From an uncultured Verrucomicrobiae bacterium (lineage in GTDB: Bacteria; Chlamydiota; Chlamydiia; Chlamydiales; Rhabdochlamydiaceae): a DNA stretch of 64,000 nucleotides. A program made the translations under genes and the position numbers. The stretch lies in NCBI GenBank assembly GCA_963731265.1, contig CAVSUE010000001.1, positions 864,997-928,996 of the forward strand. Direction: 5' to 3'. Below, in pieces: positions 22,477 through 39,498 of this stretch. A model generated the notes under the pieces. It saw only the letters and a program-made list of their open reading frames with translations, ran no database searches and had not been told where the DNA came from. Each line of letters opens with the position of its first letter. Within the stretch, counting starts at the first letter, position 1.

Positions 22477-23619
22477 TTGGTAATGAGTTTAAGAAGATGG
22501 ATGTTGCGAATTGCAGCGATAACTCTTTTTTCCAGCGCCGCCGCAGAGTTTGATGCGACGATTCCCGTGCTGGACATGAAGGAGTATTATCGGCAAGAGA
22601 CCAAAGAAAAGTTCGTCAAAGAACTTTACGACGCGCTGCACGAGGTGGGCTTTTTTGCTGTCGTCAACACAGGCGTTAACGCCGAAATATTGGACAATGG
22701 CTATCGGGCTTGTTTTGAGTATTTTGCTTTGCCGTTCGACGAAAAAATGCGGAGTTTCAGCCTTTCTACGAATGGCCAGCGCGGCTATGTTCCCGGAGAA
22801 TCGGCTAAAGGGTCTCATTTGGGAGACTTCAAGGAATTTTATCATGTGGGGCGCGAGCGGAGCGAAGAGCAAGCGCGGGCTTTGAGCACATGGCAAAATA
22901 TCTGGCCGTCCGATTTTAATTTGAAAGATCCGCTTTATTCGCTTTTTACGGCACTGCAGGAATACACCTTTTCCTTGGGCTCAGCGATGTCGGAAGCGAT
23001 GGGGGCTTGTCCTGCCCTGTTGCAGGACATGATCGTTGATGGGGATGTGCTGATGCGCGCCATCCATTATCCTGCGAATCCTCCGAAAGAGAGTTTTTGG
23101 GCTGCCGAGCATACCGATATCGATCTCTTCACCATTTTGCCGCGGGCGACAGCAGAGGGTCTGCAGGTGCAAAATAAAGAAGGGGAATGGATTGATGTCA
23201 AAGTTCCTGAAAAGGCTTTTATCGTCAACGGAGGCGATATGTTGGAAAACATCACGAATGGGGAATTCCGCAGCGGACTCCACCGTGTGGTCGCCAAACG
23301 GGATGGCTACGAACGGTATTCTCTGGTGTTTTTTGTACATCCGCGCTCGCAGGACAGGTTGGATCCACTCACCGCATGCATCGAACGCACGGGGGGTGTG
23401 CGCAAATATGCGAACGCGACGCGCCTTGAGCTTCTTGAGGAAAGGCTGGTCGATTTGGGCCTGGCCTCTCCGGCCATGATGGAGCATCTTGCCCAAAGCG
23501 GCCTGATGGAACGGTTGATCGAAGTGGGCAGGGCGAGTCCCAAAGCAATGAAAAAATTGAGAGACGCGGGGTTAGCCAGTGATGCCGTTTTGGCGGAACT
23601 CGTCCGTCTTAATCAGTAA
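22477..23619 (+). CDS. 2-oxoglutarate/Fe(II) dioxygenase (IPNS/DIOX family) with signal-like N-terminus
   Basis: IPVLDM..GFFAVVNTG; HTDIDLFT; NGGDML..TNG..SGLHRV; RYSLVFF. Confidence 0.9.
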   Translation: MVMSLRRWMLRIAAITLFSSAAAEFDATIPVLDMKEYYRQETKEKFVKELYDALHEVGFFAVVNTGVNAEILDNGYRACFEYFALPFDEKMRSFSLSTNGQRGYVPGESAKGSHLGDFKEFYHVGRERSEEQARALSTWQNIWPSDFNLKDPLYSLFTALQEYTFSLGSAMSEAMGACPALLQDMIVDGDVLMRAIHYPANPPKESFWAAEHTDIDLFTILPRATAEGLQVQNKEGEWIDVKVPEKAFIVNGGDMLENITNGEFRSGLHRVVAKRDGYERYSLVFFVHPRSQDRLDPLTACIERTGGVRKYANATRLELLEERLVDLGLASPAMMEHLAQSGLMERLIEVGRASPKAMKKLRDAGLASDAVLAELVRLNQ

Positions 23620-26304: not shown

Positions 26305-26437
26305 GGCAATTGCAAAACTCCACGCCATCAGAAAGAGGCTGCGAAGAAAGGCAAGCAGTGCCAAGCAGGTGAGCAAAGCGAATCGCCTGAGGCGTCAAAA
26401 GGGCGATTCTACGCGGCCAAGAGTTTTCAATTGCTCA
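26302..26437. repeat. Inverted-repeat-bounded element whose termini are the tdk and udk stop codons
   Basis: TGAGGCAATTGCAAAACTC ... GAGTTTTCAATTGCTCA. Confidence 0.6.
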
Positions 26438-27139
26438 GTTGATCGGTTGTTTTGCTTTATCTGATCTTTGGGCGAAAAAGTCATGTTCCTTTTTCAAGCC
26501 TGAGATCACCAAAGCGATGCCGTTCTCATTACGCTGCCTTGTTGGAATGATCAAGTCTGCATGACGCTTGCTTGGTTCCACGAACATCTCGTGCATTGGC
26601 TTTACTGTTGTCATATACTGGTCGCGCACGCTGTTGAAATCGCGGGCTCTTTCATTCAAATCCCTCTCAATCCGTCGAAGAAGCCGGATGTCATCATCGG
26701 ACTCGACAAAGATCTTCAAATCGCACAATTCCCGAATTTCCGCCACGGCGAACAAAAGGATGCCTTCGACAATGACGATCTCAGCGGGGTTGACTGTCTG
26801 CGTGCTCTTTTCGCGGGAATGGGTGCTAAAATTGTAAATCGGCACTTCGATCGGGTGATCTTCTTTGAGTTGAATCAGATGCTTTTTCAATAACGCAAAA
26901 TCGATCGCATCGGGATGGTCAAAATTCCGTTTAGCGCGCTCTTCAAGACTTAGATGAGAGAGGTCTTTGTAATAGTCGTCTTGGTTGATGATGACAGCGC
27001 AGTCGGAAAAAGTTTCGAGCAACTTTTCGGCGAGCGTCGTTTTTCCAGAACCCGTTCCGCCTGCTATCCCAACGAATACTTGGGCCTGTGCTATTAAAGG
27101 GAATACAAAAGATAAAAGACCAACGATGAGAAAACGCAT
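26435..27139 (-). CDS. udk: Uridine kinase with signal-peptide-like N-terminus
   Basis: VGIAGGTGSGKTT, QDDYYKD, NFDHPDA, IVEGILL, RRIERD..ERAR. Confidence 0.95.
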   Translation of the reverse strand: MRFLIVGLLSFVFPLIAQAQVFVGIAGGTGSGKTTLAEKLLETFSDCAVIINQDDYYKDLSHLSLEERAKRNFDHPDAIDFALLKKHLIQLKEDHPIEVPIYNFSTHSREKSTQTVNPAEIVIVEGILLFAVAEIRELCDLKIFVESDDDIRLLRRIERDLNERARDFNSVRDQYMTTVKPMHEMFVEPSKRHADLIIPTRQRNENGIALVISGLKKEHDFFAQRSDKAKQPIN

Positions 27140-29150: not shown

Positions 29151-29795
29151 ATGGAGTACAACACATTTATCTATTACTTTGTCTCTCTCCTGGTCATCTG
29201 CAGCCCTTTTTCGGCCTTGCCTGCTCTAATTACTTTAACCCAAGGGCTTTCCGAGGCGGAGAAAAAGAGGACCGGGCTCGTTGCCGGGATCAGCGTGGGG
29301 GTGATTTTGGTCACAATGACATGGATTGGGGGACCTCTTCTCGATTTTTTGGGGATCACAGTCCCTGCTTTCCAGGTTGCTGGGGGCATCGTGGTCTTCT
29401 TATTGGCCTTATCGATGCTCAACGCAGAAACGAGCCGCATTAAGCAGACAACAGAGGACCAAAAGGATTCCAAGCATAGAAACTCGATAGCAATCGTCCC
29501 GTTGGCTATCCCTATTATGGCAGGGCCCGGAGCGATCAGCACGATGATTGTCGCGGTCAATGATAATCCAGGGGTGATCAATCAGCTCTCTTTGACCTTT
29601 TGCGCGATCCTCGTCGCCTTGGCGCTCGGAATCACGCTCTACTTTTCCCCGAAGTTTGAGAAATTTCTCGGACAAAGAGGGATCAACATCGTCAATCGCC
29701 TCGCGGGTCTGATCCTCGCAGGAATTGCCGTCCAAACGCTTGCTAAGGGCATCATCGGTCTCTTCCCATTTCTCGAGTATCCTGTGGGTCATTGA
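29151..29795 (+). CDS. MarC family inner-membrane protein
   Basis: FQVAGGIVVFLLALSML; IVPLAIPIMAGPGAISTMI; RLAGLILAGIAVQ. Confidence 0.93.
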   Translation: MEYNTFIYYFVSLLVICSPFSALPALITLTQGLSEAEKKRTGLVAGISVGVILVTMTWIGGPLLDFLGITVPAFQVAGGIVVFLLALSMLNAETSRIKQTTEDQKDSKHRNSIAIVPLAIPIMAGPGAISTMIVAVNDNPGVINQLSLTFCAILVALALGITLYFSPKFEKFLGQRGINIVNRLAGLILAGIAVQTLAKGIIGLFPFLEYPVGH

Positions 29796-30666
29796 CCAAA
29801 TCATCCAAATAAGCGGCAAGTTCGGGTGACCGTTTGAGAAGCCATTTCCGCAGTCTTCGCGTATCTTTCACCAATTCATTATGGGTTTGAAGCTCGGAAG
29901 AAAGAAAAAATGAACCAATGTCTATGGAAATGGCCCTGTCTTTGAGGAGGCCGATATTGCGCCGCACGGCTGGATCGAAATCGATGATCCCTTTTTGATA
30001 GCGGGCCTGCAGACAGGTGACGACATTTTTAATCACTTTGCGGCAATAAGTCAGGTCTTTGTGCTGAAGATGAAATCTAAGCGCTGTAAACACGAGATCG
30101 GCCCGATATTGGAGGGCAAAAGGAATGCTGGACAGATCAAGATGGTGCTTGATGCCGGTATTGTCGATGAGGGTGATTTCTAATTCTGTGTATTTTGGCG
30201 AGGGATTAAGGTTTAAAAACAGGAGGCCGGACACGTCCTTAAGCTCTGTGTATGCGAGATGGGAGCTAGTGAAAACGCGCTCGAGTTTTTGTTTTTGCCA
30301 CTTTAAAAATGCGATGCGCGGACGATCGAGGATTCCGGGAAGCGATAAACGATAAAGAAGGGGGTATTGCCGGACATTGTGCATTTTAAAAAGTTTGAGC
30401 ACGATAGATCCGTCCTGAGAGAGAAAAGCATAACTCTGGCCCCCGCTGCCAAAATAAACAAAGGGCTGTGAGAAAATGGCTTTGAGCTCGGCCAATTCTG
30501 TGGCTGAGGGGGGAGAAGTTTCCCATCGAGGGGAATGCGGAAGACGCGAGACGATTTTGACCGTTTGAAAGCCTTGGGTTTGAGAATGGCAAAATTTCGA
30601 AACCGCCCAGAACAGGAACCCGGCGAATAGGAGTTTACAGAATGACTTCAGCATGTATTTTTGCAA
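29752..30666 (-). CDS. Membrane-anchored kinase-like paralog 5
   Basis: TM; YFGSGGQSYAF..VLKLFK; GIIDFDPAVRRN; IDIG. Confidence 0.75.
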   Translation of the reverse strand: MQKYMLKSFCKLLFAGFLFWAVSKFCHSQTQGFQTVKIVSRLPHSPRWETSPPSATELAELKAIFSQPFVYFGSGGQSYAFLSQDGSIVLKLFKMHNVRQYPLLYRLSLPGILDRPRIAFLKWQKQKLERVFTSSHLAYTELKDVSGLLFLNLNPSPKYTELEITLIDNTGIKHHLDLSSIPFALQYRADLVFTALRFHLQHKDLTYCRKVIKNVVTCLQARYQKGIIDFDPAVRRNIGLLKDRAISIDIGSFFLSSELQTHNELVKDTRRLRKWLLKRSPELAAYLDDLVNDPQDTREMGRDR

Positions 30667-31531
30667 TTTTTTCCAATAGGTAGTTTAAAAGTTCCGGAGA
30701 TTCCTTTTCGAGCCACTTTTGCAATGCAAACGTCATGAAAAAAACTTCTGTCGCCGTCTTGAAAGGGCTCTTTAAAGAGGGATCGGAATAATAAGATCCG
30801 AGATCGAATTCGATCGCTTTCCCATCGAGGAAGCCGAAATTAATCCTCAGATTGGGATCGCGGTCCCCAATCCCATTTTTGCAGCGGAGCACAATGAGGG
30901 AAATCATCGCATCGATCGCTTTTTGCGCTTCGTCTTGTCGTCCCTGTTCGATCAGCTCTTTGAAATAGGGAAACAGTAGCTTTGCTCTTCTTTGCAAGGC
31001 AAACTCTGTTTGGCTTAAATTGAACGAATGGGGGATTCCCCAGGCGTCATATAGGGTGATTTGACGATCGAAATACTTGTTCGGACTTAAGGTTAGGTAA
31101 ATGAGGCCTGTTTCTTCTTTGAGCGCCTGGAAAGAGAGGCTGCAGCTATTAAAAAAGAAGGAATGCCGCTTATGTCGATGTTCCTTTTCGCGGAAAAGAA
31201 TTTTCTGGATGCGCCACGCGTCGCAGACACCGGGAAAGGCAAGATGGAAAAGAGAGTGCTTAAAAAAAAGCTGGTGATGTTTGAACACTTTAAGAATGGT
31301 CTTTCCATCCTCTCCCAAGAATACAAACGAAGTCCCTCCCGCTCCGAGAAAGCGGAAAGGCTGATCGAGCAATGCATCGACACCGGCTGGGGGTGGGCAA
31401 TCGATGGAAGTTTGCGAGGAAGCAATTTTAGAAAGGTGGAAGCCTCTATTTTGCCAATAGTAAACTCTTTCTGTCAAAACTCCGGCGGAAACAAGTAAGA
31501 GTGCGGCAAGGATGATCGATTTTTTTTTCAT
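30635..31531 (-). CDS. Membrane-anchored kinase-like paralog 4
   Basis: TM; FLGAGGTSFVF..ILKVFK; GIGDRDPNLRIN; FDLG. Confidence 0.75.
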   Translation of the reverse strand: MKKKSIILAALLLVSAGVLTERVYYWQNRGFHLSKIASSQTSIDCPPPAGVDALLDQPFRFLGAGGTSFVFLGEDGKTILKVFKHHQLFFKHSLFHLAFPGVCDAWRIQKILFREKEHRHKRHSFFFNSCSLSFQALKEETGLIYLTLSPNKYFDRQITLYDAWGIPHSFNLSQTEFALQRRAKLLFPYFKELIEQGRQDEAQKAIDAMISLIVLRCKNGIGDRDPNLRINFGFLDGKAIEFDLGSYYSDPSLKSPFKTATEVFFMTFALQKWLEKESPELLNYLLEKIAKIHAEVIL

Positions 31532-32433
31532 GATTTTTCTACAAGTGCCAGTTCTTCATTGAGGCAGGGGACCAGCTGCGGGTGGTTGTCCTCCAGCCAG
31601 GGGCGCAGACTTTTATCGGTAATCCGTTTTAAGTCGGCAAGGTAAATAGCAGGGTCTTTTAAGAAAGGAACGCGGACAAATCTTCCGATGTCGATAAAGA
31701 TGGCTTTTTGGCCGACGAACCCTAAATTATTGTAAAGACGGGGATCTTCGTCGAATACGCCTTTTTCACTACGATTGACGATGGCCTGGACGATGGCATG
31801 AAGAGATTGTTTGGCAGATACGAGATCTCCTTTTGCCATGGATGCGTCGATCCGAGGAAAAATAGGCTCGGCTTTTCTTTGGACGGCAAATTCGATATTG
31901 TCCAAATCGATCTTATGTTGGATGCCGATTTTATCGATGATCCGGACCGTTCTCTTGAGCTCACTCCCTTTGTTGAGGTGAAGATAAAGCAGACCTGTTT
32001 CTTCCCGAAGGTCTTCATACGCGATTTTATAACTCATAAAATCCCGATGGAGTTTAAAAAGTGCCCTGTCGAGTTTACGGAGGCGGGATAATTCTGCGAC
32101 GCTGGGAAACGGGCGGGTGAGCAGGAAATGGTGGGGTTTGCGAAAAAGACGGAATTTGAAAAATTTGATCACGTAATTTCCGTCTTCGGAAACAAACGCA
32201 AAACATTGCCCTCCAAATCCCAAATAATGAAATTTTTGCGAGAACACCCGGTCAAGCTCAGCTTTTGCCTCCGGGGGAGGAGGGACAGTCTCCCACGCGG
32301 GATTAAAGGTGAGTCCGGAATGGATGAGCGCAACGGAAAAGCCGTCCGTTTTTTGCTGGCAAAAGCGGGAGGTGAAATGGAAAAGAATGATCAAGAGGGG
32401 GAGGATCAAAAAGTTTAGATATTTTTTTTGCAT
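31528..32433 (-). CDS. Membrane-anchored kinase-like paralog 3
   Basis: TM; YLGFGGQCFAF..VIKFFK; GVFDEDPRLYNN; IDIG. Confidence 0.75.
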   Translation of the reverse strand: MQKKYLNFLILPLLIILFHFTSRFCQQKTDGFSVALIHSGLTFNPAWETVPPPPEAKAELDRVFSQKFHYLGFGGQCFAFVSEDGNYVIKFFKFRLFRKPHHFLLTRPFPSVAELSRLRKLDRALFKLHRDFMSYKIAYEDLREETGLLYLHLNKGSELKRTVRIIDKIGIQHKIDLDNIEFAVQRKAEPIFPRIDASMAKGDLVSAKQSLHAIVQAIVNRSEKGVFDEDPRLYNNLGFVGQKAIFIDIGRFVRVPFLKDPAIYLADLKRITDKSLRPWLEDNHPQLVPCLNEELALVEKS

Positions 32434-33245
32434 AAGTGATCGAAGTATTCTAATAGTTCTGGATCCTGGGTGGCAAGGTAGATGCGAAATTTTTCTTTGA
32501 AGCGGCGCAGGTCTTCCTCTGCGCTTTTTTCGGCGTAGGCCATCCTTCCGACATCAACAACGATGGGATTGCCATCCACAAATCCATAATTGCTTCGAAA
32601 ATTGGGGTCTCGGTTACGGACGCCTTTATCATGGAGCCGCATGCATAGCGAGAGCAATTGATCGATTGCGTGTTTTGCCCCGTCCATATCGTTGCTCGCT
32701 ACAAGGGCATCGATATGGCCATTGGCCAAGTCGGCCTTTTTTTGAACGACGAACTGCAGTTCGTCGAGGTTCAGAAGATGTTCTTTTCCGGAGATATCGG
32801 AAAATAAAACGGTTTTATACAGATGTTGCGTAGGATTTAAATGAATGTAAAGCATTCCCGTTTCTTCAGAAAGATGATCGAAACTCAGTCTGAATGCGGA
32901 AAAAACCCGATCTCTTTTGCCTTTCACTTTCTGTAAATTCAACGACAGCCAATGGCGAGGGAGGAATGCCTTTTGCTTGAAGAACTTGATGACGTATTTT
33001 TCATCCTGGCTCACGAAAGTAAAACACTGCCCGCCCCCGCCTAAAAACCGGTAAGATTGGGATAGAGCGGTTTCTGTGTCTTTTTTTTCTATCTCGTTTT
33101 GGTCTCGTCCTTCCCAAGCGCGCTGGAAGGGGACTTTGGTGCTGATGGCCTCCAGAGAAAAGCTTTTATTGGGCTTCGGAACGGGGATCAGAAGAAATAC
33201 TAAACCTAGGTTTAAGAGCAAAAACACGGCCAATTTTTTTATCAT
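32415..33245 (-). CDS. Membrane-anchored kinase-like paralog 2
   Basis: Likely ATG 33245 (ATGA overlap); FLGGGGQCFTF..VIKFFK; GVRNRDPNFRSN; VDVG. Confidence 0.75.
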   Translation of the reverse strand: MIKKLAVFLLLNLGLVFLLIPVPKPNKSFSLEAISTKVPFQRAWEGRDQNEIEKKDTETALSQSYRFLGGGGQCFTFVSQDEKYVIKFFKQKAFLPRHWLSLNLQKVKGKRDRVFSAFRLSFDHLSEETGMLYIHLNPTQHLYKTVLFSDISGKEHLLNLDELQFVVQKKADLANGHIDALVASNDMDGAKHAIDQLLSLCMRLHDKGVRNRDPNFRSNYGFVDGNPIVVDVGRMAYAEKSAEEDLRRFKEKFRIYLATQDPELLEYFDHLCKKNI

Positions 33246-34288
33246 CCGGGGCTCTTCCCTATTTCTTGAAGTAGGTGATCTGACAAGAGAGGGTATTTCT
33301 TGTCCAGCCATTGGCGGAAACTATCTGTGATCAGAAAGATGTTATCCCGGTCACCGGCAATTTTGCTTCCCTTGCTAAACCGGCCGATATCAATCTGGAC
33401 AGGGGTTTTATCGATAAAGCCGAAATTGGTATTTAGATCGGGATCTTTATCGTAAATCCCTTTCTCGCGCCGTGACTTAAGGAGATTGATTAGAGACGTG
33501 ATAGCCTCCTTGGCAGTTTCCATTCCTTCTGTTGCCACGAGATATTGGATGGAAGGATAGAGAAGAGAAGCTTTCTTCTGAACTATGAATTCCATCTCGT
33601 CGAGATCGATCTCATAGGCTATCCCTAACTTGTCATGGATCATCACCTTCTTTTTCAAATCCTTCGTCTTATTGAGATGGACGTAGAGCAGTCCGGTTTC
33701 TTTTTTTAATTCCTGAAAGGCTATCTTATAGCTTTGAAAATCTTTGGCCAACTCCTCCCGTTTTCTAATCATTTTGCCGATCTTGCAAGGTTGAAGCGGC
33801 AACGGGAAACTCAAATGCGTCATCCATAGAGGAGGCAAAAGATGATAAATACGGATAAACTTGATCACGGTTTTACCGTCTTCAGATGCGAAAACATAGG
33901 CTTGGGCTCCTCTGGCAAGATAGTAAAACGGTTGGTCGAAGATTTTCATGAGTTCTTCGTGTTCATCGGACGGCAATGAAGCGGTTTCCCAATCAGAACA
34001 GTAAGAAAGGGAGGAGAAGATCTTATAAAGTGCAAAACCATCCGTTTGCCGATAGCAGAAACGTTTCAAAATGACCACAGCAAGGATAAAGACGCAGATC
34101 TTTCCAATTTTCAAAACGTATACGGGAAATGATTCAAAAGTTGGGAATTTGGCAAGGCGGTTGCGCAAATTTTTTGTTTGGAGCAAGCGACCAATGTGCA
34201 AGCACAAAACGCGAGTGAAGACAAAAAATTTGCTGCATAGCCAACGCAGCCTAAAACCAATTTTTGAATCATTTTCAGTAAAGCTCAT
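33242..34288 (-). CDS. Membrane-anchored kinase-like paralog 1 (start uncertain; N-terminal ~55 aa come from a palindromic element)
   Basis: YLARGAQAYVF..VIKFIR; GIYDKDPDLNTN; IDIG. Confidence 0.72.
   Translation of the reverse strand: MSFTENDSKIGFRLRWLCSKFFVFTRVLCLHIGRLLQTKNLRNRLAKFPTFESFPVYVLKIGKICVFILAVVILKRFCYRQTDGFALYKIFSSLSYCSDWETASLPSDEHEELMKIFDQPFYYLARGAQAYVFASEDGKTVIKFIRIYHLLPPLWMTHLSFPLPLQPCKIGKMIRKREELAKDFQSYKIAFQELKKETGLLYVHLNKTKDLKKKVMIHDKLGIAYEIDLDEMEFIVQKKASLLYPSIQYLVATEGMETAKEAITSLINLLKSRREKGIYDKDPDLNTNFGFIDKTPVQIDIGRFSKGSKIAGDRDNIFLITDSFRQWLDKKYPLLSDHLLQEIGKSPG
34121..34280. mobile_element. MITE-like element with TIRs at the 5' end of kinase-like paralog 1
   Basis: TACGGGAAATGATTCAAAAGTTGG ... 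CCAATTTTTGAATCATTTTCAGTA; inner GCAAATTTTTTGT/ACAAAAAATTTGC. Confidence 0.65.
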
Positions 34289-34377
34289 ACCGAATTTGTA
34301 TACACAAATTAGCTGTTTTTTTTCAACAACATTGACAAATTGATGATGAATTAATAGAATGAAGAAAAGTGAGGTTT

Positions 34378-35011: not shown

Positions 35012-35842
35012 TTACTTAATGACGATAGTCCTGGTGATATCGTTGAAAGGGCTGGCCACGTAGTTGTTCTGCGGATCGAGAAGTTCCAAGCGGATTTGGT
35101 GCTGCCCTTTTTTCAGGCCGTAAATGTAATAAGGCTGCCAGGAGGTAAGAATGCGCTGGCTATCGTTATCGATGGTGAGTCTGATTTTGTAGCCATCTTT
35201 CGATAGCTCGCAATTGGTCAGGTAGAAGTCAAGAAGGATGGGTTGAAGGTTTTTTCTGTCGTAGTCGTATTCTCCCTGCGGTTCATTGTAAGTGAGGTAA
35301 GGCTGCGACAAATCGATTTTGGAATTTTCCTTAGTTTCTTGGAAATAAAACTTGCTGGCTGCGAATGCTCCTGCAGACTTTAGGCTTTCATTATAGGAGC
35401 GCACGGGAAACGCCCTGATTACATGCATTCCGGGTTGTAATTTGAAAGGAATTTGAAATTCGGCTGTCTGGTCGAAATAATCTTGCACATCGTCTAGAGC
35501 GTCGATCAGGGCCTCGTCTACGGCAAAATAGGGCTGATTGTCGATAAAGATATGCAGACTTTGCCCTTCTGAATCATTCCAAATCTCATGTTTTCTCGGC
35601 TGGTCCGTGTCGACTCCGAGGGCAATTCCTTCCAACTTGATTTGCCCTTTGACAGGCGAAGATTTTTTCAATTCATTCTTTTTTGGGTAGAGAATTCTCG
35701 TATTGACGTGGTCTGGGTCTGGCGTCGGATCCACAGGAACAACTTGCAGTCCTCTAGTGTTAGGAGGCTGGTGTTCGAGCTGGGCGCAAAAACCCATCGT
35801 GGATACAAGAGTGAAAAGTGAGAGGTGAATTATCCTAAACAT
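35012..35842 (-). CDS. Secreted hypothetical protein, probably two beta-sandwich repeats
   Basis: Signal peptide; repeated H/Y..ID/TID...G.H.IR motif. Confidence 0.75.
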   Translation of the reverse strand: MFRIIHLSLFTLVSTMGFCAQLEHQPPNTRGLQVVPVDPTPDPDHVNTRILYPKKNELKKSSPVKGQIKLEGIALGVDTDQPRKHEIWNDSEGQSLHIFIDNQPYFAVDEALIDALDDVQDYFDQTAEFQIPFKLQPGMHVIRAFPVRSYNESLKSAGAFAASKFYFQETKENSKIDLSQPYLTYNEPQGEYDYDRKNLQPILLDFYLTNCELSKDGYKIRLTIDNDSQRILTSWQPYYIYGLKKGQHQIRLELLDPQNNYVASPFNDITRTIVIK

Positions 35843-36011: not shown

Positions 36012-36189
36012 CTAGTGGTCCTTGACAAAAACTCTTGCGACAATTTCGAGCGTGAAAGCTCGCTCAAATCGACGAACGCAAGCTTCGCAAGTTGATCCGT
36101 ATTAATTCAATACGAACCAACTTGCGATCGTCGATTTCAGCGGCTTTGACGCTGAAATTGCTCCAAGAATTTTTGTCAAGGACCACTAG
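36012..36189. mobile_element. MITE-like element (178 bp) with CTAG ends
   Basis: CTAGTGGTCCTTGACAAAAACTCTTG ... CAAGAATTTTTGTCAAGGACCACTAG; terminus resembles 18908. Confidence 0.75.
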
Positions 36190-36232
36190 TGCCCCTTCAC
36201 TTTATCGCTCACTCCTGTTATTAGGTGATTAT

Positions 36233-37231
36233 ATGAGCTTTTCACCCCTTGATCTAGTGATCATGATTATCATTCTCGGCCTTCTGTTCGATTATACGAA
36301 CGGATTTCACGATGCGGCCAATGTCGTCTCCACCGTGATCGCCACGCGCGTTTTAGCCCCATTGACGGCAATCGTCCTCGCCTCATTTTTGAACATGGTC
36401 GGAGCCACACAGATCAGCGGCGTGGCCAAAACGATCACGACGGGGCTTGTCGACCTTCATAGCGCCACGCAGGTTGCGATCTTAGCAGCGTTGATCGGGG
36501 CGATCGTGTGGAATATTCTCACATGGTACTTTGGGATACCTAGCAGCTCATCCTATGCGCTCGTAGGAGGTTTGGTCGGCGCTTCCTGGTTTCGCGAAGG
36601 CTATGATGCGATATTGTGGAAAGGGGTTTGCTACAAAGTAGTGATCCCCATGGTTCTTTCTCCCATCGCAGGATTTTTGCTCGGTTTTTTGGTTTTGCGC
36701 GGTCTTCATGTTTTGCTCAAATGGAAGGTTTTTAAGCATAATGAGCGTGTATTCGGCCATCTTCAAATCGCTTCAGCGAGTTTGGTCGCTTTATCGCATG
36801 GGCTCAACGATGCGCAAAAGAGCATGGGTATCATTACTCTCGGGTTGTTTTCCGGAGGGATGGTCGCCACAACGCACATTCCTTTTTGGGTCATCGGCGC
36901 ATGCGCGATCGTCATGGGCATCGGCACGGCTTCAGGAGGTTTTCGGATTATACGCACAGTGGGGTATGAGATCACAAAGCTCAAACCCATTCACGGTTTT
37001 GCCGCGGAAACGAGCGCATCCTGCGTGATTCTCACGGCGAGCTTTTTAGGGATGCCGATCAGCTCCACGCATATGATTGTCGGTAGCGTCACCGGAGTTG
37101 GGGTCGCCCAAGGGTTCTCCAAGGTCCGTTGGTCAACATGGAACAAGATGGCCATCGCTTGGGTGTTGACACTTCCCGGATCCGGTCTTATCGCGGCCTT
37201 TGCCTGCCAAGTGTTTAAGTATTTCTCCTGA
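36233..37231 (+). CDS. Inorganic phosphate transporter, PiT family
   Basis: NGFHDAANVVST; GIPSSSSYAL; HGLNDAQK; GMPISSTH. Real start ATG 36233. Confidence 0.94.
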   Translation: MSFSPLDLVIMIIILGLLFDYTNGFHDAANVVSTVIATRVLAPLTAIVLASFLNMVGATQISGVAKTITTGLVDLHSATQVAILAALIGAIVWNILTWYFGIPSSSSYALVGGLVGASWFREGYDAILWKGVCYKVVIPMVLSPIAGFLLGFLVLRGLHVLLKWKVFKHNERVFGHLQIASASLVALSHGLNDAQKSMGIITLGLFSGGMVATTHIPFWVIGACAIVMGIGTASGGFRIIRTVGYEITKLKPIHGFAAETSASCVILTASFLGMPISSTHMIVGSVTGVGVAQGFSKVRWSTWNKMAIAWVLTLPGSGLIAAFACQVFKYFS

Positions 37232-37317: not shown

Positions 37318-39498
37318 ATGCATTTGCGCAAAGGTAAAGCAGAACTTTCTGTGATTGAAGCGGTCGATAATCTGTCCCACATGGCAGAAGTGGATGTGAC
37401 TACCCCTCAAGAATCTGAAAAGCCCCTCGAGCTGACGGAAGAACAGCTCGCCGAGAGAATGCATCTTCATTCCTGGCATGATCCAGAATATCACAAGTAC
37501 AATCAGGGTAGAATTCGAGAGACATTTCAGGCGCTCCACAAATATTTAAAAGATCTCTACGAAAAGGACAAAGGGCAGCTTAGAGATGAAGAAACGCAAA
37601 GAGGGATCCAGGCGATGATGCTCCTGGCAGGGGAGGCCGCGCAAAAGATCGACAATTTCACCGACATCTTCAAACAAGAAGGGGAAAGCGTCACCGAGCT
37701 CAAGGAATATAAAGAGCTGCAGCAATTTTATCTCACCAAAGTTGTTCAGCGGTTCCAAAAGACCGTCGAATCTGAAGAAAAGTGGCAGGAAGAATGGGGC
37801 GCCGGCGTCAGCGAAGAGAAGATCGGCGTTCAAAAGGGAGGGCTCAAAAATTTGGAGTCGGTCCGCCAGGATAAAGAATATGAACTGTTTTTCATGCGGA
37901 ATGAATCCGGCCGCCCTTTTTTCAACCGATCCCTTTTGCACCACATCCAATTGATTGGACAATTCGATTTCATGCTCCGCGATATGACCCGTGAAAATCC
38001 TTTTTTACGGATTCCGATGATCCTGGACAGGGATGCGCATTCCTCTGCAAAAGAAGTGCTCCATCTCGTTTCGCCCTACATCGGCGAGTATTTCAAAGAA
38101 GCCTTGAAATTCAAAAAGATTTCCTTCGTTATCGAGATCAATAAGGCTTTGATGGCATTAATGCTGGCCGCTAATCCCCGCAACCTCATGCAAACGGCAG
38201 CAGGTAAATGCTGTTTAAATTATTATACTGACTTCCATAGTTATTTGCGCAGCGGCCTTCAATCCAAAGAATACTTGCGTTTCATCGCCAATCCTCCCGA
38301 CCTTTCGGAACATTTTCTCCATACACTTGTCAACTTGACGCATGTGCTCTCCGCCTCTTTCTTCTTAAGAGGGATGTCCAAAAAAGACATGAACGCCTTC
38401 ATCCACATGCTGATCGAAAAGGGGGCAGAGGGAACAATCGAACAAAAACCCACAGGATCACCGTTGTCCTTCTGGAATACTCTTTTGGATCAAGACAACG
38501 ATATCCGCCGTACATTGAAGCAATACCCCAATGGACCGTTGATGACGACGTTGCGGCTTTTCAGCAAAGACAAGCAGCTGACAGGCTTTGACCCTCTTTC
38601 GCAGCTCGATTTTCCCGGTTTGCTGTACACGATTACAGGCGATGATTTGCATATCAGCTGCATTAAGCTGCCATCGCCCACTTTCCAGGAGAAGATCGAT
38701 TCTGCGCAACCTACAGAAGAGTTTCGCGGCTTTCTGCGGTCGATCGGATCGCAGAAACGGAACCAGCGCTATCTGCTCATCAATCTTCAGGACCGCACTT
38801 CCAGCCATGAAATGCCCCGCTGCATGGCCATCGAGGAAGTGCAAAAAATTGAGGAATTTATCGATACGCTGATGGTCGTGACGCTTCCCAAAAACGCTGA
38901 CTTTTACCTTCAATCGGGCCCTTATTTCGACCTCAATGATGCCAAGGAGTTCAAAGGTCAGTTAAAAGAGCAGATCGCCAGCGCCGAGCAGTGCGGATTT
39001 TACCTTCCTCCCGGGATCGACAAAAAGGCGATTCTCAAATTCACCGAGGGGGCTTTAGACACCATCCATCAAATCTTTTTCGGAGACAAAGGTAACCTGG
39101 TGCATAAAAATCGGCTCGATTTCATCGAGATTTTCTATTTGCTCTTCATGTTGAAGCTGATCGAAGAGTTTAAACCGGATATCTTAAGCTTCACTTGTAA
39201 AGATGCGATCGATACGGGCGCGGCAGCCAGCACCGCATTTTTTGCTTTCCTGAGGATGATGAACTCGACCTCCAAATGGTCGAAAGATGAGACAGACTTC
39301 GTCTTGTGGATGCTCTATTCCCCAGCCTTATCTGCGCGGGAGCGAGCGATCGATAATCAGCGCTTAAACCGTATGGTCAGCGCGCTATCTGTAGTCAACG
39401 CTGAGCTTGAAGCCCATTATCAAGATACTGTAAACGCTTGCAGCAAGCTGTACAAGCTTGCTTTCTTCAAAGGCCTCACTGTCCAAGAGGCTGAGTAA
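37318..39498 (+). CDS. Chlamydiae-type large hypothetical protein with CX5R-like motif (CKDAIDT)
   Basis: Long ORF; LINLQDRT; SFTCKDAIDTG near the C-terminus. Confidence 0.75.
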   Translation: MHLRKGKAELSVIEAVDNLSHMAEVDVTTPQESEKPLELTEEQLAERMHLHSWHDPEYHKYNQGRIRETFQALHKYLKDLYEKDKGQLRDEETQRGIQAMMLLAGEAAQKIDNFTDIFKQEGESVTELKEYKELQQFYLTKVVQRFQKTVESEEKWQEEWGAGVSEEKIGVQKGGLKNLESVRQDKEYELFFMRNESGRPFFNRSLLHHIQLIGQFDFMLRDMTRENPFLRIPMILDRDAHSSAKEVLHLVSPYIGEYFKEALKFKKISFVIEINKALMALMLAANPRNLMQTAAGKCCLNYYTDFHSYLRSGLQSKEYLRFIANPPDLSEHFLHTLVNLTHVLSASFFLRGMSKKDMNAFIHMLIEKGAEGTIEQKPTGSPLSFWNTLLDQDNDIRRTLKQYPNGPLMTTLRLFSKDKQLTGFDPLSQLDFPGLLYTITGDDLHISCIKLPSPTFQEKIDSAQPTEEFRGFLRSIGSQKRNQRYLLINLQDRTSSHEMPRCMAIEEVQKIEEFIDTLMVVTLPKNADFYLQSGPYFDLNDAKEFKGQLKEQIASAEQCGFYLPPGIDKKAILKFTEGALDTIHQIFFGDKGNLVHKNRLDFIEIFYLLFMLKLIEEFKPDILSFTCKDAIDTGAAASTAFFAFLRMMNSTSKWSKDETDFVLWMLYSPALSARERAIDNQRLNRMVSALSVVNAELEAHYQDTVNACSKLYKLAFFKGLTVQEAE

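Follow-up and report, generated by a model that had tools for sequence, protein, structure and literature searches.

A conserved tandem array of divergent kinase-like genes with putative export signals in environmental Chlamydiota

The window analyzed here is a 64,000-nucleotide stretch of contig CAVSUE010000001.1 (GenBank assembly GCA_963731265.1, positions 864,997 to 928,996 of the forward strand), deposited as an uncultured Verrucomicrobiae bacterium and placed by GTDB in the chlamydial family Rhabdochlamydiaceae, and it carries five consecutive minus-strand genes (29752–34114 once their starts are corrected) that encode divergent paralogs with the predicted fold of the protein kinase-like (PKL) superfamily. 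We read these genes as an operon-like array of exported, catalytically competent PKL enzymes that modify the cell envelope, likely as a hetero-complex, and we give this reading a probability of about one half. It builds on the paralogy and overlaps of the genes, a set of invariant Lys, Asp, Asn, and Asp residues, the predicted fold, the conserved order of the array, natural gene fusions, and co-location with a partner of secreted type; from these we infer export, ATP as the donor, an envelope substrate, and complex formation.

In order of transcription, the five open reading frames (ORFs) occupy 33242–34288, 32415–33311, 31528–32433, 30635–31531, and 29752–30666, and we label their products E, D, C, B, and A. 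Comparison with orthologs corrects the starts of E, D, and A. Paralog E (33242–34114, array position 1) most likely begins at TTG 34114, giving a protein of ~290 aa, because the 58 codons up to ATG 34288, the start of the longest ORF, cross a palindromic element and have no counterpart in orthologs, whose N-termini open with M..KICVFIL..KRFC. Paralog D (32415–33245, array position 2) starts at ATG 33245 instead of 33311, and paralog A (29752–30654, 300 aa) at ATG 30654 instead of 30666. Paralog C (31528–32433, 301 aa) occupies array position 3, and paralogs B (30635–31531, 298 aa) and A correspond to positions 6 and 7 of the seven-gene arrays described below. With these starts the E/D and C/B junctions are ATGA overlaps and the D/C and B/A junctions are overlaps of 19 and 20 nt, a layout that we interpret as that of an operon with translational coupling; scanning the array region against Rfam and for promoters or terminators returned nothing informative. 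The preliminary description of this DNA had proposed five divergent paralogs of ~300 aa with overlapping ends, and, the three start corrections apart, this holds: the proteins share 24–37% pairwise identity over a full-length alignment with 27 invariant columns, and a family hidden Markov model (HMM) built from 71 members scores them at 288–434 bits (E, 388; D, 288; C, 434; B, 297; A, 326), so that their paralogy is far above chance.

Each paralog contains the series of motifs expected of a kinase. The glycine-rich loops read YFGSGGQ, FLGAGGT, YLGFGGQ, FLGGGGQ, and YLARGAQ, the last being a variant found in paralog E and kept in its position-1 orthologs, with which paralog E shares 48–71% identity. 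The loop is followed by a β3 motif [VI][IL]K, a catalytic stretch G[IV]x[DN]xDPxxxxN in which the Asn lies at D+6 from the invariant Asp, and a final motif [IVF]D[IVL]G; the motifs had been recognized from the letters alone with the D+6 spacing correctly given, although the shorthand used for the catalytic stretch, DP..N, was two residues short. In paralog C these elements correspond to the loop 72-GFGG-75, K90, D228, D230, N236, and D248-I-G250, to which E145, D167, and Q185 can be added as further key positions. Conservation was counted over 332 family members extracted from 77 loci, with gapped sequences omitted from the denominators. K90 is kept in 299 of 299 sequences, D230 and N236 each in 331 of 332, D248 in 330 of 330, and the loop glycine G74 in 298 of 299; D167 (327/332) and Q185 (331/332) are near-invariant and have no canonical kinase role. 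All array positions look catalytically competent, and none has the appearance of a pseudoenzyme. The idea that some members are pseudokinases or scaffolds was ruled out, since the Lys, Asp, Asn, and Asp are retained at every array position.

An AlphaFold2 model of paralog C, the member chosen for modeling, was computed from the 71-sequence alignment and has a mean predicted local distance difference test (pLDDT) score of 96.4 and a predicted template modeling (pTM) score of 0.91. From the N-terminus, the model runs through strand β1, the glycine-rich loop, strand β2, β3 with K90, a long helix, β4–β5, and an extra hairpin; the long αE helix comes next, then the catalytic loop that carries D228, D230, and N236, a pair of short strands, D248-I-G, and ~50 helical residues. 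In the model this order of elements is that of a minimal protein kinase. A Foldseek search of the PDB with the model returned PKL proteins for all of its top 50 matches (E-values 1.7e-5 to 5e-3), led by AceK (1.7e-5) and WbdD (1.6e-4) and followed by Myt1, RIO1/2/3, PknB, CDK2, BRAF, and FGFR2. Together with the near-invariant catalytic residues, these predictions support the kinase-like fold first suggested from the motifs. The structural half of the comparison with PKL families thus gave the expected matches, whereas its profile half did not: Pfam and NCBIfam had no match for the five window proteins, Pfam reported no kinase family in 71 members scanned one by one at E-values up to 5, searches of PDB sequences with profiles of 5 or 71 sequences found nothing, and a profile comparison with two lipopolysaccharide (LPS) kinases, given below, was likewise negative. 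Neither the five window proteins nor the 71 members match the Hanks-type models PF00069 and PF07714, and only ~50 residues follow the D-x-G motif; UbiB/ABC1/COQ8 (PF03109) is also without a match in both sets. The PKL fold class is well supported by the model, which places the family remote from every solved structure, and we regard the family as a new, predicted sequence-orphan branch of the PKL superfamily. Our literature search on this family, on periplasmic kinases, and on chlamydial LPS kinases yielded nothing relevant, and none of the names carried by the listed homologs points to a studied member. Three of them (P0002, P0048, and P0058) are named "glycosyltransferase involved in cell wall biosynthesis" by JGI; no glycosyltransferase domain is present in them.

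The family is large and its arrays are ordered. A profile search of 1.84 billion cluster representatives recovered 2,578 family clusters at E ≤ 1e-3 (clusters at 50% identity), and nearly all of those listed are 270–330 aa long. Scanning one genome per GTDB species gave 230 matches, from which 77 loci were retained. Approximately 47 of the 77 are titled Chlamydiae, Chlamydiota, Parachlamydiales, or Rhabdochlamydiaceae, and the remainder are titled Verrucomicrobia, Acidobacteriota, or "uncultured bacterium"; the array loci in this remainder that have enough flanking DNA, including both Acidobacteriota-titled ones (L009 and L060), show the same flanking synteny. We read the recovered loci as environmental Chlamydiota metagenome-assembled genomes (MAGs), some of them labeled otherwise. 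The closest relatives point the same way: paralog C and its counterpart in locus L001 share 83% identity, and the protein encoded upstream of the array is 77% identical to a cluster named Rhabdochlamydiaceae by NCBI. Neochlamydia sp. EPS4 and Candidatus Protochlamydia phocaeensis, whose records carry no MAG flag, have single-copy members.

Most loci hold tandem arrays of three to eight members, and some genomes add a separate single-copy member. Best matches between genomes run from position to position. The window genes correspond to positions 1, 2, 3, 6, and 7 of the seven-gene arrays in L005 and L010, other five-gene arrays (L013 and L020) correspond to positions 1–5, and in a separate clade the eight-gene arrays match one to one at all eight positions. 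These matches indicate that the array is ancient and that each paralog represents an old orthologous group held in a fixed order, which in turn points to nonredundant roles for the paralogs. The expanded family of the preliminary description is better worded as an ancient array, since the positional orthology does not speak for a recent expansion.

Natural two-domain fusions offer a further view of how neighboring paralogs may work. At least three distinct types exist, represented by P0121 (501 aa) and P0074 (503 aa), by P0122 (564 aa), which resembles position 2 of L048 (L048 6296–7993), and by P0123 (519 aa); position 1 of L066 (7929–9458), a 510-codon ORF scoring 488 bits, is probably another fusion. 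The fusions have one N-terminal hydrophobic segment, and the best 19-residue hydropathy in their linkers is 0.5–1.4, under the usual transmembrane threshold. Because the N-terminal hydrophobic segment is the only one present, the two domains would face the same compartment. Such fusions also suggest, by Rosetta-stone reasoning, that adjacent paralogs probably associate physically. The earlier proposal of a hetero-oligomer gains support in this way.

Our topology call is based on charge and length rules. Each window paralog opens with two or three Lys/Arg residues followed by 11–21 uncharged hydrophobic residues (E, (M)KIGKICVFILAVVILKRFC; D, MIKKLAVFLLLNLGLVFLLIPVP; C, MQKKYLNFLILPLLIILFHFTSRFC; B, MKKKSIILAALLLVSAGVLTER; A, MLKSFCKLLFAGFLFWAVSKFC). 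Across 174 gene-called members the length of the uncharged stretch has a median of 18 residues, with on average 2.2 K/R and 0.1 D/E before it and 2.0 K/R and 1.6 D/E in the 12 residues after it. N-out/C-in anchors of cytoplasmic envelope enzymes such as WaaA and LpxK have uncharged N-termini and positive clusters after the helix, which is the opposite of the pattern in the paralogs. The hydrophobic cores of paralogs A and B are 11–15 residues long with small residues at −3/−1, and the N-terminus of paralog B looks like a signal peptide. In paralog A the core spans ~11 residues (LLFAGFLFWAV) and its best 19-residue Kyte–Doolittle mean is 1.47 versus the usual threshold of 1.6; in our view so short and weakly hydrophobic a segment would not span the membrane stably but is typical of Sec signal peptides. 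The fusion protein P0122 shows a clear cleavage site between AHA and VS (MNLYKFLFLVICVPIYAHA followed by VSS). On these features, Sec targeting with the domain outside the cytoplasm is favored at roughly two chances in three; long segments would anchor the proteins, and proteins with short ones would possibly be released. The exported topology proposed at the outset is therefore favored by the flank charges, the short cores of A and B, the cleavage site in P0122, and the secreted partner described next. A conserved Cys (Cys25) sits after the hydrophobic segment, where a juxtamembrane motif FC..TDGF is conserved. Two explanations for the cysteine were discarded: a lipoprotein, since Phe precedes the conserved Cys and there is no lipobox, and a periplasmic disulfide, since Cys25 and the glycine-loop Cys77 do not co-occur among the five paralogs.

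The gene upstream of the array (up276; 35012–35842, minus strand) encodes a 276-aa protein with a signal-peptide-like N-terminus and two Ig/FnIII-like β-sandwich domains. In the 44 loci that hold up276 it lies directly upstream of array position 1, on the same strand in 43 and on the opposite strand in L024. The protein has 848 homologs (60–96% identity among the 120 matches listed), is better conserved than the kinase-like proteins, and has no Pfam match. Its AlphaFold2 model (pLDDT 85) contains two β-sandwich domains that match FnIII modules, the Vibrio matrix protein RbmA, and the adhesin SiiE in Foldseek, and its invariant residues include H97, D101, H140, and H248. The modeled architecture is of the extracytoplasmic type and suggests a secreted protein, and its co-location with the array is suggestive of shared function. 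Beyond up276 there is usually a divergent pair consisting of a PiT (PHO4) phosphate transporter (36092–37231) and a 726-aa protein without a Pfam match (37318–39498), both on the plus strand in the window and divergent from the array in ~27–30 loci. Downstream the array is usually followed by MarC, a Vut_1-family transporter (PF02592, "putative vitamin uptake transporter"), and tgt.

Singleton members have no common neighbor gene that we could find, and their context varies by lineage. In four of 16 singleton loci, all from one lineage, the singleton is followed on the same strand by a Kdo (3-deoxy-D-manno-oct-2-ulosonic acid) hydroxylase gene (KdoO; PF11004, E-value 3.6e-93), namely in L055 (7971–10015), L059, L062, and L069. 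A DIOX_N/2OG-Fe(II) oxygenase is encoded a little beyond KdoO in L055, L062, and L069 and has a homolog in the window at 22477–23619. No KdoO or other LPS gene neighbors were seen in the Parachlamydiaceae singleton loci, nor at the arrays, where the comparison mapped homologs of six window neighbors only. L055 also carries two Glyphos_transf genes upstream. The Kdo hydroxylase beside these four singletons is the sole lead to a substrate, which may be an envelope protein, a glycan, or a lipid.

Based on these observations, we hypothesize that the basic N-terminus and hydrophobic segment would direct each protein to the Sec pathway, after which the hydrophobic segment would serve as a signal anchor that keeps it in the inner membrane or, when short, would allow its release; in both cases the minimal kinase domain of ~270 residues would sit in the periplasm. 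The periplasm normally lacks ATP. Chlamydiae import host ATP via nucleotide translocases and, because these sit in the inner membrane, host nucleotides must cross the periplasm; the exported domain could use such nucleotide in transit and would phosphorylate envelope components or modify them with nucleotide in another way. The ancient, nonredundant paralogs would most likely act side by side, either by forming a hetero-complex or by working on consecutive sites of a single substrate, and up276 possibly joins them as a secreted double β-sandwich protein. In its most far-reaching form, namely a periplasmic ATP-dependent phosphorylation system of environmental chlamydiae in which a membrane-anchored hetero-complex of three to eight specialized members together with up276 is fueled by host ATP on its way to the ATP/ADP translocase and modifies envelope proteins, LPS, or glycans, we hold this proposal only tentatively, as possible rather than probable.

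Several observations weigh against an array of exported, active envelope-modifying enzymes. The Foldseek TM-scores are low (0.27–0.43), and the equivalent of the αC Glu is uncertain: of 332 members, 262 have Glu at the E145 position and 36 have Gln or Asp there, and D131 lacks conservation. When K/R are counted alone, the flanks of the hydrophobic stretch are nearly balanced (2.2 versus 2.0). ATP-dependent periplasmic enzymes are very rare in bacteria. The data indicate no substrate, the Kdo hydroxylase adjoining four singletons is an enzyme of the cytoplasmic face, and chlamydial synteny is generally high, so the co-location of up276 may not mean shared function.

Among the alternatives, the best supported is also unlikely in our judgment: that the proteins are membrane-anchored kinases that face the cytoplasm and act at the inner leaflet on the LPS core or Kdo, on lipid A, or on a lipid-linked glycan, as functional analogs of KdkA, WaaP, WaaY, or the WbdD kinase, with the paralogs serving several glycolipid positions. 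The cytoplasm supplies ATP, the known LPS kinases associate with membranes, and the second-best fold match, WbdD, is a kinase that caps the glycan of an O-antigen. The family motif G-x-x-x-x-DP-x-x-x-N-F...IDxG resembles, by eye, WaaY "HGMVSGDPHRGNF...IIDLS", yet neither the five window proteins nor the 71 members match PF06293 even weakly, and an hhalign comparison of the family profile with E. coli WaaP and WaaY yielded probabilities of 0.3% and 0.1%, respectively, with single-sequence targets limiting sensitivity. The KdoO gene beside singletons and the cell wall glycosyltransferase name given to three members by JGI also count in favor of such kinases, but the KdoO adjacency is confined to one lineage and the comparison of six window-neighbor homologs saw no LPS gene at the arrays. 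Lys/Arg residues before the hydrophobic stretch are the reverse of what N-out/C-in anchors show, and chlamydial LPS is very short and hard to square with five to eight kinases. The indications of export and those of LPS would be reconciled if an enzyme in the periplasm acted on LPS that had already been flipped.

The two other explanations that we considered are less supported than cytoplasm-facing LPS kinases. That the proteins are exported by Sec and then carried by type II secretion to the inclusion lumen or host cytosol, where they would act as effector kinases on host targets, appears quite unlikely: the N-termini resemble signal peptides, some seemingly cleavable, only obligate intracellular bacteria appear to have the family, the surroundings of the bacterium are rich in host ATP, and Sec/type II substrates such as CPAF are known to be secreted by chlamydiae, but effector families usually expand and turn over by lineage, in contrast to the strict positional orthology and slow, order-preserving evolution of the arrays. 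In addition, most members look more like anchors, having 18–21 uncharged residues and no good cleavage site, and the juxtamembrane motif is conserved. It is also highly unlikely, in our view, that the kinase-like fold serves a different chemistry, such as AMPylation as in SelO, glutamylation as in SidJ, or a lipid-handling ATPase as in UbiB/COQ8. Several atypical PKL families have proved not to be kinases, and the great distance of the family from all known kinases, the D+6 spacing of the Asn, the additional near-invariant D167 and Q185, and a membrane anchor suited to lipid handling are all compatible with such a change, whereas the canonical phosphotransfer set (Lys, Asp, Asn, Asp, and the glycine-rich loop) is intact and no SelO, SidJ, or ABC1 model or structure is among the matches. 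We continue to favor exported PKL enzymes that modify the envelope.

A uridine kinase gene 3 kb from the array (26435–27139, minus strand; Pfam PRK, E-value 2.7e-43) bears on whether ATP could be used outside the cytoplasm. The N-terminus of the encoded protein, MRFLIVGLLSFVFPLIAQAQ, directly precedes the P-loop strand, and an equivalent extension with a basic, a hydrophobic, and a "PL.A.." part is found in at least 13 uridine kinase orthologs from other chlamydial loci, the sequence itself not being conserved. The protein may be an exported ATP-dependent nucleoside kinase, and its signal-peptide-like start fits the feasibility of periplasmic ATP use; if the signal peptide is real, this would be a second ATP-dependent enzyme exported in these organisms. 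A family of ~2,500 clusters that lacks a Pfam or NCBIfam model would add to the PKL superfamily a predicted branch that sequence methods have missed. A periplasmic location of the domain, if true, would challenge the textbook view of a Gram-negative periplasm without ATP-driven enzymes and would tie an ATP-using periplasm to the energy-parasitic lifestyle of chlamydiae; together with an exported uridine kinase, it would make the chlamydial periplasm an energized compartment, unlike that of free-living Gram-negative bacteria.

The palindromic element next to paralog E (34117–34284; unstranded) is not part of the enzyme system. It is 168 bp long with terminal inverted repeats of 24–34 nt and an inner perfect inverted repeat of 13 nt, lies 2 nt upstream of the paralog E start, and creates both the false 5′ extension of the E ORF and a spurious plus-strand ORF (34071–34343). 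Folded as RNA it reaches −48.4 kcal/mol (z = −3.8), and in its window orientation a weak terminator-like hairpin (34250–34232) followed by a T run points toward the array. The element is present at the orthologous sites of L001 and L007 in the opposite orientation relative to the genes (~90% identity), a further and longer copy lies between other genes in L007 (2764–3050), three metagenome contigs (L082–L084) carry it with unrelated flanking ORFs, and it recurs at raised depth, between differing flanks, in many short metagenome contigs of moss and soil. Because copies with the same termini occur in unrelated contexts, it is better read as a dispersed element resembling miniature inverted-repeat transposable elements (MITEs) or repetitive extragenic palindromic (REP) sequences. 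An invertible promoter or switch was rejected on the same ground, and no strand-change joints were seen in the contigs, which were searched without reads. Elsewhere in the window, two adjacent large RHS-repeat/YD-shell proteins (984 and 517 aa; 14316–18834, minus strand) may represent a split toxin-delivery gene.

Among known systems, Fam20, Fjx1, and CotH resemble the putatively exported array proteins in concept, with a signal or anchor preceding a divergent kinase fold outside the cytosol. These much larger proteins belong to the eukaryotic Golgi or to spore coats, Fam20 (PF06702) and CotH (PF08757) have no Pfam match in the family and are absent from the Foldseek top 50, and the parallel with Fam20 and CotH drawn in the preliminary description stands as an analogy at the level of general fold class only. 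AceK (6k5l, 3eps), the best fold match (E-value 1.7e-5, TMq 0.34–0.43), is an atypical bacterial PKL protein with conserved Lys, Asp, Asn, and Asp; unlike the array proteins, it is a soluble cytoplasmic protein of 570 aa with an extra regulatory domain, shares 11–13% identity with them, and has its Asn at D+5. The RIO kinases (RIO1/2 and RIOK3) share with the family a small kinase domain that has neither a substrate-binding lobe nor an activation segment of the classical type, but they are soluble ribosome-biogenesis ATPases of archaea and eukaryotes, and PF01163 has no match in the family.

The LPS kinases KdkA, WaaP, and WaaY (PF06293) are comparable in size (~230–300 aa) and in the PKL fold and membrane association predicted for the family, the catalytic loop of WaaY contains "DP", and some family members have the LPS gene KdoO as a neighbor; in contrast to the family, these kinases face the cytoplasm, lack a basic–hydrophobic N-terminal signal, and show no significant HMM or profile similarity to it. 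The WbdD kinase domain of the E. coli O9a O-antigen terminator (4azs, 4ax8) differs in being cytoplasmic, fused to a methyltransferase, attached by its C-terminal region, and without paralog arrays, and it aligns structurally with the family at 14–18% identity and a TM-score of ~0.33 with no sequence-profile match. Like the array proteins, WbdD combines a bilobal minimal kinase fold (E-value 1.6e-4) with membrane association, both of which are predictions for the family, and it acts on a glycan of the envelope.

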